Notes under the pieces: generated by a model
The model's database searches: none
Seen by the model: the letters and a program-made list of their open reading frames with translations, nothing else
Told to the model about the DNA's origin: nothing
Shown: positions 7,060 to 61,820 of the stretch, piece by piece
Numbering within the stretch: position 1 is the stretch's first letter
Layout of the letters: every line of letters starts with the position of its first letter
Source of the DNA: Octopus sinensis
Lineage: Eukaryota
Direction of reading: 5' to 3'
DNA length: 64,000 bases
Assembly: GCF_006345805.1 (NCBI RefSeq)
Contig: NC_043004.1
Span: 60,946,001-61,010,000 of the forward strand
Made by a program: the position numbers and the translations under genes

Positions 7060-7287
7060 CCGGAGTAAACACATAAATGTGAAACAAGGGGAAAAAAGAG
7101 TACTAAATACCAGTGGTAGAGTAATATACTTATTTAAAGCATCAGAAATTTCAACAAAACCTGTTACTCTGAGTTTCCCGTTGCCGTTTATCGGACAGTT
7201 TTTGCTAGCAAAAACTGTCCGATGAACGGCAACGGAAACTCAGAGTAACAGGTTTTGTTGAATTTTCTGCTACTTTAAATAAAGTTT
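7060..7287. mobile_element. Palindromic Penelope-like end insertion in (TA)n
   Basis: Inverted repeat ~7128-7285 centred on gctagc (7204-7209). Both flanks are TA-rich microsatellite, and each arm carries a hammerhead-like core. Confidence 0.75.
7215..7251 (+). ncRNA. Type I hammerhead-like motif with CCGAUGA core variant
   Basis: ctgt-CCGATGA-acg gcaa cg-GAAA-ctc a gag-TA-acag: stem I ctgt/acag, stem III ctc/gag, GUA site. A diverged copy lies near 58207-58243. Confidence 0.6.
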
Positions 7288-7514
7288 ATATATATACATA
7301 TATCCACATATATATATATATATATATATATATATATAATGTGTGTGTATGTGTGCGTGTGTACGTATATATGTGTTAATATATATATATATATATATCA
7401 TATATATATATATATATATATATATATATATTATATATATATATATATATATATATTATACATATATTATATATATATAACACACGCACACAGACACTCA
7501 CACACACATGCAAG

Positions 7515-8345
7515 TTCTTGCAGATAAATTGAGACAATTTTTAAGTTGCATAAAACTGGTTATAAATACTAAAATAATGGTAGCAGACAAATATAATTTC
7601 AATGTAACATTTATTACAACAACACCATTTCATCAATCAATGTGGCCGCCCTTTTGGGCAATTACTGCCTCCACACCTAATGATTTTTTTTGCAGCTGCT
7701 GCAACCCCTACTCTTTTGATTTCGCGTGTCGCACGCACGACACTGGTCTTCAAACTGTTGACACTTCAGTGTAGTGAAGTATTGGTCCTCACCCGAAGCA
7801 CCCTCCATAAAATGTAACCGAGAAGGTTTAGATCTGGAATATTACTGGGCCAGAGGTTGGCCCCCCACAAAGAAATGGCACCTTCTCACCAAGAAAGGCC
7901 TGTGTTACTTTTGGTGCATGGCATGGCGCAGAATCTTGGATAAGCACCACGTTGTCAAGCTTAAATTTCTGCTCCATCCAAGGTAACAAAGAGTTCGTCA
8001 GGATATCCAGATACTTCTTTTTGTCGATCTTCAAGCCAGACTCAATGAAGTGTGGATCCATGACACTTCCATCACTCGTTACGGATCCAAATACCATCAC
8101 AGAGGCAGGATTCTTAATCCCAAACACAGGTTTGGATGTTAGATGAGTTGTATGTAATCACTCGAGAATTTCTGCGATTTACCTCAGCGTCCACAGTGAA
8201 CTTCTCGCTCACAAACAAGACATTTTTCCTGCTCTTTGATGCTTGATGAATGACAGAAGCTTTGGGAATCTCTCGAGTATGATTGCTTTGGCCTTGGCTG
8301 TTAGGCGGTAACGGCGTCGTCGAACACATAGCTAGCAATGCCAAG
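7515..8345 (-). mobile_element. Decayed Tc1/mariner-superfamily transposon (maT/DD37D-like)
   Basis: Frameshifted transposase pieces: EKFTVDAEVNRRNSRVI and VMVFGSVTSDG...YLDIL...LLPWM...LIQDSAPCHA. Confidence 0.8.
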
Positions 8346-8487
8346 GTTCCTGTTCACACCTCTGGACACCGTGGAAGAGTACACATTGCGTTTCTTTGCG
8401 CTATATTGTTGTTTTACATACGAAATTATTTCCTTTATTCTTTCCTTATATATAATATATATATATATATATATATATATATATATA

Positions 8488-8728
8488 AAACATACAAAAA
8501 TGGGACAAAACGCAAAACATCCAGGCAGTTAGGTGATACAAAAATGGGACAACAAAATATCCAGACAGACGATACAAGGAAAACAAGGACGGGTCATTCG
8601 GAGTTTTCGTTCCTCAGGCGAGTTCCAGATTATCTTTGCAATTTCGGTTATATTCGAGATTGCTCCAACCTGGCCAGTCCCAAGGAAAAAGCTAAGAGCA
8701 TTATATTCCTTGGAAGAAAGCAACGAAT
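8488..8728 (-). mobile_element. Probable Penelope-like 3'-end fragment within (TA)n
   Basis: Bounded by (TA)n on both sides, with an internal duplication (atacaaaaatgggacaa x2). Only a degenerate ctgagga...gaaa on the minus strand. Confidence 0.4.
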
Positions 8729-9244
8729 ATATATATATATATAAATGTGTGTGTGTGTGTGTATACATGTGTGTATGTATCACTATATCACCCAGAATAT
8801 CGGATATTGTTATACATCGCTGTATGTATGTTTATATATGCATATATTATTTGCATATTTACTTGTCCATATATTCATTCTTTCTTTTACCATCTTCCTC
8901 TTTTTGTTATTTCTTCCTATCTTGATGCATCTAGTCTGAGAACGGTGTTCTGATAAACAGAACAGTTCTAATTATGTGGGTAAATATAGCTTTTGAATTA
9001 ATTTAATTAAAATTATGTATCCTCATTATGTAATTGTAGATTTACTGATGTGTATGTTAATGGAGCAGCTGTTGAGTATTTATTAATTAAAATGTGAATT
9101 ATCTGAGAATTTATTTGTTTTTTCTGCTTTTCTATTAAACGCACACGCGCGAACACACACGTGCTAACACACATACATACACATACATGCACACAGATAT
9201 ACACACACATAACTAAAACACATACATTTGTCGTTTTCCGCAAT

Positions 9245-58821: not shown

Positions 58822-59113
58822 GTAGGTCCCGGGTTGATCCGGGGTTAACACAGTAAGTAAGGTACTCAATACATAGCAGAGTAAAATTAATTTATTATAT
58901 AGAAGGAGCTTCTACAGGACTAGTACTGTTTCATTCAAGAGAATCTTCAGGAAGCTATTAAACAAGAATTGTATTAGCATTTATACATTTAGGCACTCCT
59001 TTAAACCTGCCTAATGTATAAATGCTAATACAATTCTTGTTTAATAGCTTCCTGAAGATTTCTCTTGAATGAAACAGTACTAGTCCTGTAGAAGCTCCTT
59101 CTATATAATAAAA
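58822..59113. mobile_element. Palindromic Penelope-like end insertion in (TA)n
   Basis: Arms ~58891-58995 and 59008-59113 with a 12-nt spacer; each arm has a hammerhead. Confidence 0.82.
59046..59096 (+). ncRNA. Type I hammerhead ribozyme (mirror copy at 58907-58956, minus)
   Basis: agcttc-CTGAAGA-tttc tctt gaat-GAAA-cag tactagtc ctg-TA-gaagct; GUA site. Confidence 0.85.
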
Positions 59114-59167
59114 TATATATATATATTATATATAATATATATAAACATATATATATATATATATATA

Positions 59168-59600
59168 CAGGAAGAATTCACAAAAAAAAAAAAAGACGAA
59201 GACAGGTGGTGTAGACAACAAACAGATCTATTAGTTTAACGCTTTCGAGCCTACGCTCTTCCACAGAAAGGAACACAGAAAAACAGGGAGAGAAAATAAG
59301 GAATTTGTAGTGGCTAGCGATCTATCATGGCGAAAGCCGGACAGAGGAATCCCACAGGAGAGCTAGGCAGAAGGGGAGATAATAAAGTAGTGGTGATCCC
59401 AAAACAAAGGTGTGCGTGCGTGTGTATAAGTGTACTTGTATGTGCGTGTGGAAGAGGGCTGGTGACCTTGACGTGTGTAGGTGTTTGGATAATGGTGTGG
59501 TAGCTGGGAAGTGGCCAGTGCTAGTCTGCGCCAGTTGGTGTGATGTGATGTGCTGTTATATATGTATGTATATAAATCAGTAACAATTATGGACAGTATA
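59168..59600 (-). mobile_element. Penelope-like 3' fragment with degenerate hammerhead
   Basis: Minus strand reads ctgtggaagagcgtaggctcgaaa, the same layout as 6158-6180; abuts (TA)n. Confidence 0.5.
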
Positions 59601-61557
59601 TTTAATAAAATGTACCTGTCCGAATAACTCAAGAGTGGATTATATACTCAGCTGGGTGAAATTGGCTGCATGCACCACTGTAGTAGTTCCCAAACTTTCC
59701 ACAATGTTTCCCAACTCTTTTATTTAAATAAGTTTTCTCACGGATCCTTTTTAATATGCTTACACTTATGTATATGTATATATGTAGATATATGAAATTT
59801 TGAATTTAGTTTACAGACACCCAGCACTACTTTTGCAGTCCACTAGGGTTCCACGAACACCAGGTTAGGAACCACTGCATTTCAGGAATATCATTCTCCG
59901 GTACTTCTGTGCCAAGATTGATGGTTACATAATATTGTTTGTTTTCTGTATACATACACACGCACACAGATAGATGCATAGAGAGATAGATCAGGATATA
60001 TGTGTGTAAGCTTGTATGGAGTGTATGGGCGTGAATGCACGTTCAATATATATTATACAAACACACATCTTCTCACACTCAAATGTTTATTTGGAATTCC
60101 GATTCAAATAAGAGATTCAGCAATACTCACCCAGTCCCTGGCCTTCTTCAAAAATGAAGGCGTAATAAATATTTCAGCAGCTTCGGTGGGAAACCCTGAT
60201 ATGGAACGCGTGGACTACATATATAGGTTCTATATATGCAAATGTTTAAGTGTGCATATGCACACAAATATATTAACGTACACACATACATACATATATA
60301 CATTTATACACATATATATACATATATATTTGCACGTGTATATAAATTTGCATATATATATATATATATATACATTATATATATATATATATATATATAT
60401 ATATATATATATATATTATATATATATATATATAATATATATATATATTATATATATATACGCATGTCTTACTATATAGTCTTATTGCAAATGGCATATG
60501 TATATATATATATATATATATAATTATATAACACCAGACCCATAATATACACGTAGATCTTAATATATATATGTCTAATTACAAATGGTGTAATGTATAT
60601 AATATATATATATATATATATACGTGTGTGTGTGGTGTGGTGTGTGTATGTGTGGTCAACATATTTCTATTGATCAGCATACATATACATAATCTGTCGC
60701 CCACACTAGCAATAGGAAATCTAGTGTATAAAACTGATATGAATGAATTAAGATAAAGGGTTGAAAGAGGAACTGTTGCAAAGTAAAACATTTTCAAAAG
60801 AACGGTTTCTTTTTATAATTTTTGTCAAAAAGGAAAGGTAAAATTTCAGGTTCCAAGAAAAGTTTTCTTGCCAAATGTTCTTGGAACGAAAAGGTTAACG
60901 GAAGAAAAAATATAAACCTTAGGCAGGCGTTGGCTTTGAAGTTTGACTATATATATATATAAAAAATTAGATTAAATTTATTTCGTCTGACTAAGCTGTT
61001 ATACAAAGCCTGTTCGTCTGTTTGCCATCGTGTCTCTGTGTGTATATATGTGTGTACACACCTATATAAATACAAATCAAAATAAACAACAGGATATCAA
61101 GACGTGATGCCGTACGACCGTTTCAAGCGGCTCCATTTAATTGAACAATGCAATCATTACATCAATTTAAATGCAGAGCTATCCTCAGCTGCACAAATAA
61201 ATAAATAGAATTTTAATCAATCGGACACAATTATATAATTTTACACAAATTCTCTAATAGTGCAAGAAGATAGAAAAATCCATGTTCTCGCTATTGTAGT
61301 ACTGTTGCCCTCCATTCTAAACAGACGCAATTCTCTCGTGTTAGATTTCGTAGTTAGTGAAAAGACTAATATATTAAAAATGAACCACAGTCCTTTACAA
61401 GCTATGAACCCACCAAACTTCATACATTTCTTGGAAGTGTAGTATATTCTTAGCTACAATAGTGACAACATGGATTTTTTATCTTCTTGCTCTATTAGAG
61501 TATTTGAATAAAATTATATTAATGTGTCCGACTGATTAAAATTCTATTTATCTATTT

Positions 61558-61645
61558 GTGCAGCTGAGGATAGCCTTGAATTTAAATTGCTGTAATGATT
61601 GCATTATTCAATTAAATGGAGACGCTCGAAACGGTCGTACTGCAT
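61558..61645 (+). ncRNA. Type I hammerhead ribozyme in pLTR, long stem II
   Basis: gtgcag-CTGAGGA-tagc...(taatg attg catta hairpin)...gctc-GAAA-cggtcg-TA-ctgcat; diverged mirror copy at ~61108-61195. Confidence 0.8.
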
Positions 61646-61820
61646 TATTACTTGATATGCTGTTGCTCATTTTGATTTTATTCACCTTACTTTGCGCTGT
61701 ACGGATAATGCCGCACTGACTTGGTGCTTCAGCTTAAGAACCTGATTCGACTGAATTTCAATAATTTCTTAACTCGTCAACCAAACCATTACAACGTTTC
61801 TGGTACTTAGCTTCATCAGG

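Follow-up and report, generated by a model that had tools for sequence, protein, structure and literature searches.

Seven inserts of Penelope-like elements (PLEs) in a 64,000-nucleotide stretch of the Octopus sinensis genome (NC_043004.1, positions 60,946,001 to 61,010,000; hereafter the window, numbered from its first letter) each consist of two arms of one family joined head-to-head, and in six of the seven the arms have different end points, a proximal site for one arm and, 64-127 nt further 3', a distal site for the other. In related autonomous PLEs, copy ends fall beside either of two copies of a short box pair. We consider it probable that two reverse transcriptase (RT) units start at two sites, one per target end, giving two target-primed complementary DNAs (cDNAs) per event. 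The inserts are ordinary copies of Penelope-type elements whose polarity has already been published, so that the polarity rule alone adds little; what is new is the pairing of proximal and distal ends together with the duplicated box.

Head-to-head inserts and their two end sites

The window is AT-rich eukaryotic DNA, dense in (TA)n, (CA)n, and tRNA-like short interspersed elements (SINEs), the last of which presumably resemble octopus SINEs. The seven inserts, each found within a few bases of where the original prediction had placed it, are numbered case 1 (7060-7287), case 2 (47101-49120), case 3 (49152-49788), case 4 (51878-52145), case 5 (52160-57090), case 6 (58822-59113), and case 7 (61074-61679), and a probable case 8 (61683-63206) is described below. 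Hammerhead ribozymes were searched for with a type I descriptor (i.e., core CYGANGA, GAAA, and stems I-III) and ten block-shuffled windows as control: 20 complete hammerheads lay inside the seven segments and one elsewhere in the window, compared to 0-2 per shuffled window. Plus-strand hammerheads were located in the right arms of cases 1, 2, 4, 6, and 7 and, in eight copies, in that of case 5; minus-strand hammerheads were located in the left arms of case 2 (three), case 5 (three), and case 6 (one), and the left arm of case 1 has one with a single core mismatch. The strand rule was without exception, all left-arm motifs being minus and all right-arm motifs plus. Case 3 has no ribozyme, and its orientation had been taken from a hammerhead-bearing relative, which alignment to case 4 supports: its body matches case 4 on the same strand (73%, E = 1e-7), and its tail matches on the opposite strand (82%, E = 2e-18), which sets the orientation. 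All seven thus have the predicted polarity, with a 5'-truncated antisense copy of the same family next to the 5' end of a sense copy. The Rfam hammerhead family was absent among the best 150 of 214 matches, which held only 5S rRNA and microRNA noise driven by TA and CA repeats, and free-energy folding of seven ribozymes gave a z-score below -2 in one.

The TA microsatellite claimed on both sides of the first six inserts was also found, as all 12 outer ends of cases 1-6 lie no more than 2 nt from a run of at least five TA, against a background of 2.1% (other positions at most 5 nt away from a run of at least four); such flanks would mask any target-site duplication. Case 7 has no TA flank, the nearest run being 113 and 718 nt from its ends. 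(TA)n is absent from all seven centres, and the window has no same-family convergent pair. Seven of seven in one polarity gives p = 0.008 against a coin toss and p = 0.016 when counted as six families, which agrees with the claim that random orientation is unlikely; however, a coin toss is the wrong null. Head-to-head has been published as the most frequently observed PLE arrangement (PMC3846280), and PLEs with (TA)n targets, a 5'-truncated inverted copy at their 5' end, and a tail of 30-40 bp that is often one-ended have been described (PMC8557442). These reports also agree with the statement that PLEs often carry inverted pseudo-long terminal repeats (pLTRs). Other local inverted repeats in the window were four SINE pairs, two of them head-to-head and two tail-to-tail (Fisher p = 0.11 vs 7:0), and a ribozyme-less palindrome at 13615-13991. 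Five hammerhead-like remnants (6158, 26837, 58205, 59616, and 39619, with that at 58205 related to case 1) have no clear inverted arm, and inversion is therefore common but not obligatory.

The arms of an insert generally differ in where they end. In case 1, the left arm (7060-7206, minus strand) runs to the distal site and is 64-70 nt longer at its 3' end than the untailed right arm (7207-7286, plus strand; hammerhead core at 7219, cleavage position 7247), with a 6-nt palindrome at the centre. The left arm of case 2 (47101-48755, minus) comprises 3.3 tandem units of 506 nt with its three hammerheads and ends about +160 from the cut (proximal), and the right arm (48753-49115, plus) comprises 0.7 unit with a hammerhead at 48812-48871 and ends at about +252 (distal), the two overlapping by 3 nt at the centre. 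The arm lengths of case 2 modulo the unit sum to about one unit (507 vs 506 nt), which does not hold in case 5 and is perhaps chance. Case 3 has an untailed left arm (49154-49208, minus) that ends at the proximal site and a right arm (49209-49785, plus) whose tail measures about 85 nt; a SINE (49317-49698) interrupts this right arm at the proximal site. This SINE is young (98.7% to 32101-32480) and inserted exactly at the AT-rich proximal site. In case 4, the left arm (51879-51972, minus; inner end at 51969-51975) is the tail alone, from the distal to about the proximal site (alignment score 125, reached by none of 500 shuffles), and the right arm (51976-52142, plus; inner boundary approximate) has its hammerhead at 52014-52053 and ends at the proximal site; cases 3 and 4 share both end sites. 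Case 5 has a left arm (52160-53531, minus) of 2.9 units of 480 nt ending at unit position +269 (distal) and a right arm (53535-57090, plus) of 7.4 units ending at +140 (proximal). In case 6, the left arm (58822-58995, minus) has a 66-nt tail, and a 12-nt spacer (58996-59007) separates it from the untailed right arm (59008-59112, plus; hammerhead 59052-59096). The left arm of case 7 (61069-61299, minus) is 88% identical to the right arm (61454-61682, plus), from which a 154-nt spacer (61300-61453) separates it, and has no recognised tail; the right arm carries a hammerhead with a long stem II (61564-61645) and ends at +43.

A tail at one end only is thus present in six of the seven inserts, case 7 being the exception, and the proximal/distal pairing in these six has p = 0.03-0.06 under independent site choice. 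Homology links the tail of case 1 to that of case 6 (2 of 1000 shuffles). L1-type twin priming on a single RNA gives non-overlapping arms, and this layout occurs in case 4 alone of the seven (probably also in case 8 and, outside the window, in one related locus, L048) and not in cases 1, 2, 3, 5, 6, and 7.

Contigs from four public runs were compared with 51845-52636. These contigs are short and leave 51845-51987 and 52134-52171 outside their coverage, so that both distal sites and the proximal end of case 4 are unseen there, and none among them spans an empty site. Across the four runs, variants of the case 4 family at a frequency of at least 1% fell on five of seven loop II positions and on none of the core, and at 52049, where the window copy reads GUU, nearly all copies carry the cleavable GUA; judged from these variants, the family looks to be under selection. 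One contig of run X2 switches strand at 51999/52056, and we infer that, given zero depth left of 51980, only a head-to-head switch could have been seen. For case 5, (TA)n borders the proximal site in 42 run X1 contigs and in 20 from run X3.

Sense strand and duplicated box pair in related elements

A decayed, internally deleted PLE open reading frame (ORF) at 61821-63206 (plus strand) retains the N-terminus from residue 1, a thumb piece, the CxCx5C linker, and, at the C-terminus, a GIY-YIG region, with the motifs RMRW and CNCRVKSQC; the DKT motif/RT core portion is deleted from this copy. Its N- and C-terminal pieces gave tblastn E-values of 1e-9 to 3e-13. Pfam returned no relevant match for four window fragments and one weak GIY-YIG match among seven homologues, and a word search with a 53-residue piece found no match. 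By its RW and CxCx5C motifs, this ORF is assigned to the Hydra clade. We compared it with 78 related autonomous PLE loci from metagenome contigs (61 families at 90%; designated by L-numbers), where RW[KR] occurs in 62, DK[TS] in 75, CxCx5C in 71, and DKG in none. The ribozyme is on the ORF strand in 66 of the 78 loci and was not found in 11; in the one locus with a ribozyme on the other strand only, it belongs to a second element there. This upholds the predicted view of the inserts as Penelope-like derivatives in (TA)n whose ribozyme strand is the sense strand of the element. A ribozyme antisense to the ORF in the Hydra clade, as 61790-61824 had suggested, was rejected on the same count.

In 26 related leaders, the hammerhead cut lies at a median of 154 nt before the ATG. 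In the window, a minus-strand ribozyme adjoins the start codon of the ORF, and because ribozyme and ORF share a strand in the relatives, 61683-61824 (minus; degenerate hammerhead cut at 61790, end at about +107) is most simply an inverted arm. Thus 61683-63206 is a probable eighth head-to-head case, in which arm and ORF would belong to one family; a 3' pLTR partner for 61683-61824 was not found, 242 of 300 shuffles scoring as well. The start of several copies coincides with hammerhead stem I or precedes it by a few bases (61820-61824 in the window, and the 5' ends of L049, L050, and L061), and no such start occurs in cases 1, 2, 5, 6, and 7.

The related loci carry a box pair, GCTC...GAGCAC, after the ribozyme. 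At least two copies are present in 25 of 28 related leaders, mostly 54-70 nt apart (2 of 5600 shuffles), and typically about 63 nt apart in the autonomous loci. With the 3' box as anchor, GCTC lies 6-30 nt upstream in 48 of 53 instances, compared to a 5% background, and box hits number 127 in sense and nine in antisense. Among 47 related 3' pLTR copies, 14 have no same-family reference, seven stop at a contig end, and two run into a tandem copy, which leaves 24 mappable copies, or 23 independent ones (L039 and L040 being one insertion). Mapped copies end within -12 to +6 nt of a box start in 21 of the 23, seven at box 1 and 14 at box 2, with p = 2e-11 for this register at a window width picked after viewing the data. 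Because long ORF-bearing copies end at either site, both sites look like start sites rather than stop sites. The published Hydra consensi show, by eye, the same boxes with ends beside them (PMC8557442). No description of the box pair was found in the literature searched, though Evgen'ev and Arkhipova (2005) and Arkhipova (2006) may hold one.

In the window, cases 1, 6, and 8 have candidate variant boxes in the expected place: ACTC...AGTACT at 7122-7099 in the tail of case 1 (about 7060-7126, minus), ACTC...GAGTAC at 58882-58861 in case 6, and a variant at 61741-61724 in case 8. In cases 1 and 6, the box lies 6 nt past the proximal site, and the tails (64-70 and 66 nt, respectively) match the box spacing. 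For cases 2-5, whose tails have no recognisable boxes, the box model would apply by extension. At the two sites in each of cases 2 and 5, internal repeats did not exceed chance, and the relation between the 480-nt and 506-nt units is weak at most (14 of 500 shuffles). A 13-nt stretch is common to both units 20-30 nt past the proximal site; the match is weak (16 of 500 shuffles), and the stretch is possibly a different start signal.

Origin of the inverted arms

We propose that each insert would stem from a single retrotransposition event, in which a PLE RT/GIY-YIG protein mobilised a Penelope-like RNA that was pLTR-only, a tandem retrozyme, or ORF-bearing. This protein would cut both strands of (TA)n, and each free 3' end would prime its own cDNA on the sense RNA downstream of the hammerhead, one starting at the proximal and the other at the distal site. 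Joined at their far ends, the two cDNAs would give head-to-head arms with a tail on one arm only. In the Hydra clade, each start site would lie just 5' of one copy of the box pair, a putative hairpin of 4 bp by which a single RT unit is probably positioned. A distal cDNA that halts at the proximal primer would leave non-overlapping arms, as in case 4, and one that reads on (by strand displacement, on tandem or circular RNA, or on a second RNA) would leave overlapping arms. For both-strand cutting and extension and for two start sites, the model draws on an experiment in another PLE clade, in which the Poseidon protein cuts and extends both target strands and two internal start sites bound the tail; the same study predicts a dimer (PMC11167929). 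Binding of the RT to the boxes, action as a dimer, use of one RNA rather than two, and the joining step would be further features of this model. Two target-primed cDNAs had been predicted and are the likeliest origin, with support that comes from the arm ends, evidence that the prediction did not use. In searches combining Penelope with twin priming, no paper on PLE mechanism surfaced, as judged from the result listings, and the two older works named above may hold the idea.

That prediction had read the polarity as the signature of twin priming, a reading that does not hold, because a first target-primed cDNA that folds back and copies itself also yields an antisense-then-sense layout, as would self-priming. 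In the fold-back scheme, which we regard as unlikely for the set as a whole, joining of the copy to the second target end would take place at a TA-like stretch or follow endonuclease cutting. Nested arms and palindromic or near-palindromic centres in cases 1, 3, 6, and the 13615 palindrome are what it would produce, all proximal sites are TA-like and would suit a stop at microhomology, the inverted arm of locus L023 ends within the ORF, and tails have been ascribed to endonuclease resolution of an intermediate (PMC8557442). However, fold-back cannot produce case 4 or L048, because the short arm there contains sequence absent from the long arm or hardly reached by it. For cases 2 and 5 it would also require loops of some 370-400 nt, and seven long related copies end at the proximal site, none with an inverted arm long enough to have served as template. 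In case 5, three substitutions of the would-be template are absent from the left arm, a weak point, since they may be later changes or assembly errors. The nested cases 1, 3, and 6 fit two priming events and fold-back alike, as two cDNAs made on one RNA would reach the same 5' end and so form a near-palindrome too, and fold-back may make part of the near-palindromes.

Two separate same-family insertions, or a later rearrangement by gene conversion or repair at a palindrome, would be an improbable source, even though these families are abundant (thousands of contigs per run) and PLEs strike a given TA tract repeatedly. Where one tract has been hit separately, the copies converge tail-to-tail over (TA)n and are of different families, as with cases 2/3 and 4/5 in the window, each pair representing successive insertions into a single TA tract, and with L012, L018, and L033 among the related loci (at L012:2445-2465 and L018:2597-2620, two Hydra families meet over one short (TA)n tract). 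In contrast, none of the seven centres contains (TA)n, and both arms are always of one family. Self-match was detected in 16 of the 78 related loci, and same-family inversions are head-to-head in L023, L026, L033, L048, and L069; L029 gives a weak case and L062 a mixed one. Three of the loci with such inversions sit at contig starts and are possible chimeras.

Self-priming on an antisense transcript, the published account of head-to-head PLE copies, was proposed for the same layout in rotifer elements (PMC3846280), and the junction palindromes of case 1 and 13615 are in keeping with it. We consider it less probable still, as it leaves non-overlapping arms and fixed sense-strand outer ends beside (TA)n unexplained, the coding strand is the one that carries ribozyme and boxes, and the template in vitro is sense RNA (PMC11167929). 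An assembly or library artefact from fold-back long reads, which the roughly 99% likeness of the arms and the scattered 1-nt deletions in cases 2 and 5 might suggest, is very improbable, given 6-12% divergence between the arms in cases 1, 6, and 7, unlike flanks on the two sides, a SINE in one arm, and arm ends at family-specific sites.

Several observations weigh against two target-primed cDNAs starting at paired box sites. In the window, both arms of case 7 end at +43 (unless a tail was lost); in cases 1, 3, 6, and 13615, the short arm is nested in the long one, with a palindrome or a 12-49-nt spacer at the centre; and the definition of the two sites draws partly on the insert itself in cases 1, 2, and 6. 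The box pattern used in the window was relaxed after cases 1 and 6 had been seen and has a dozen unrelated matches, a profile of the related leaders had no match in the window, and a pattern search found no box after the end sites of cases 2-5. Among the related loci, the box stem shows no covariation, being invariant by construction, so that the hairpin is inferred only; two of the 23 mapped ends (L006 and L065) miss both boxes; the inverted arm of L023 ends at neither site; L062 has a short tail-to-tail junction next to its head-to-head one; and most full-length copies show no inverted arm. Finally, neither start site showed a preference for the top or the bottom strand in vitro, which speaks against strict pairing (PMC11167929).

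Neighbouring repeats, known systems, and significance

The ribozyme-less palindrome at 13615-13991 (no strand assigned) is GC-rich and TA-flanked, with arms 96% alike and a 43-nt extension on the left only. It gave no protein match and no hammerhead by the descriptor, and it may be a PLE-type insert of a ribozyme-less clade. Elsewhere in the window, a full-length 5S rRNA-like copy (17373-17491, minus; 95 bits) lies amid SINEs; a SINE half with a (TA)n/(CA)n block is repeated three times, nearly identically, with a period of about 580 nt (32850-34208); and broken reading frames occur at 11810-12800 and 17657-18452, which we take to resemble RTE-type and R4-type long interspersed element (LINE) proteins.

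In LINE-1 twin priming, two target 3' ends prime two cDNAs that are joined head-to-head, with the second primer at arbitrary internal sites and arms that barely overlap. Case 4 and L048 share this non-overlapping layout; unlike LINE-1, both starts here are at fixed sites and the arms usually overlap. Known endonuclease-bearing PLEs resemble the inserts in being head-to-head, with some junction palindromes, a one-ended extension, (TA)n targets, and a hammerhead near the 3' end, whereas the tails here are 64-127 nt (43 nt in the ribozyme-less palindrome) instead of 30-40, most inserts are non-coding, and the end pairing is counted and tied to a duplicated box. With the described Hydra clade (PMC8557442), the elements share RW(K), DKT (in the related loci), CxCx5C, a GIY-YIG at the C-terminus, a canonical hammerhead, and (TA)n targeting, but the window has only a decayed ORF, and its boxes are variant (cases 1, 6, and 8) or unrecognisable (cases 2-5). 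Cases 2 and 5, with at least two tandem units, a complete type I hammerhead in each, and no ORF, would on sequence grounds qualify as retrozymes, and they resemble non-LTR retrozymes (PMC7229834; bioRxiv 10.64898/2026.07.22.740005) in their 480- and 506-nt units. Unlike those, the arrays here form two opposed arms, and the accessible parts of the two retrozyme texts hold no passage on 'inverted'. The Poseidon protein PAc studied in vitro (PMC11167929) likewise cuts and extends both strands of an AT-rich target from two internal starts that bound a tail; it differs in being of another clade and in having its start sites inside the ORF, and that study draws no link to inverted copies.

The origin of tandem and inverted PLE copies has been called undefined (PMC8557442), and the sole printed explanation found is self-priming on antisense RNA (PMC3846280). 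The end pairing and the box make the question of PLE inversion testable, and the box pair offers a handle for assigning non-coding ribozyme repeats to the autonomous family that mobilises them. More tentatively, we suggest as a possibility that two-ended priming may be the programmed insertion mode of endonuclease-bearing PLEs, brought about by a duplicated pLTR signal that loads two RT units on one RNA. If so, inverted pLTR, one-sided tail, and tail length would all be explained by one step. PLEs are the closest retroelement relatives of telomerase, and the endonuclease-bearing ones would then be retroelements without a separate second-strand primer, behaving as a telomerase-related enzyme would in healing a break at both ends.

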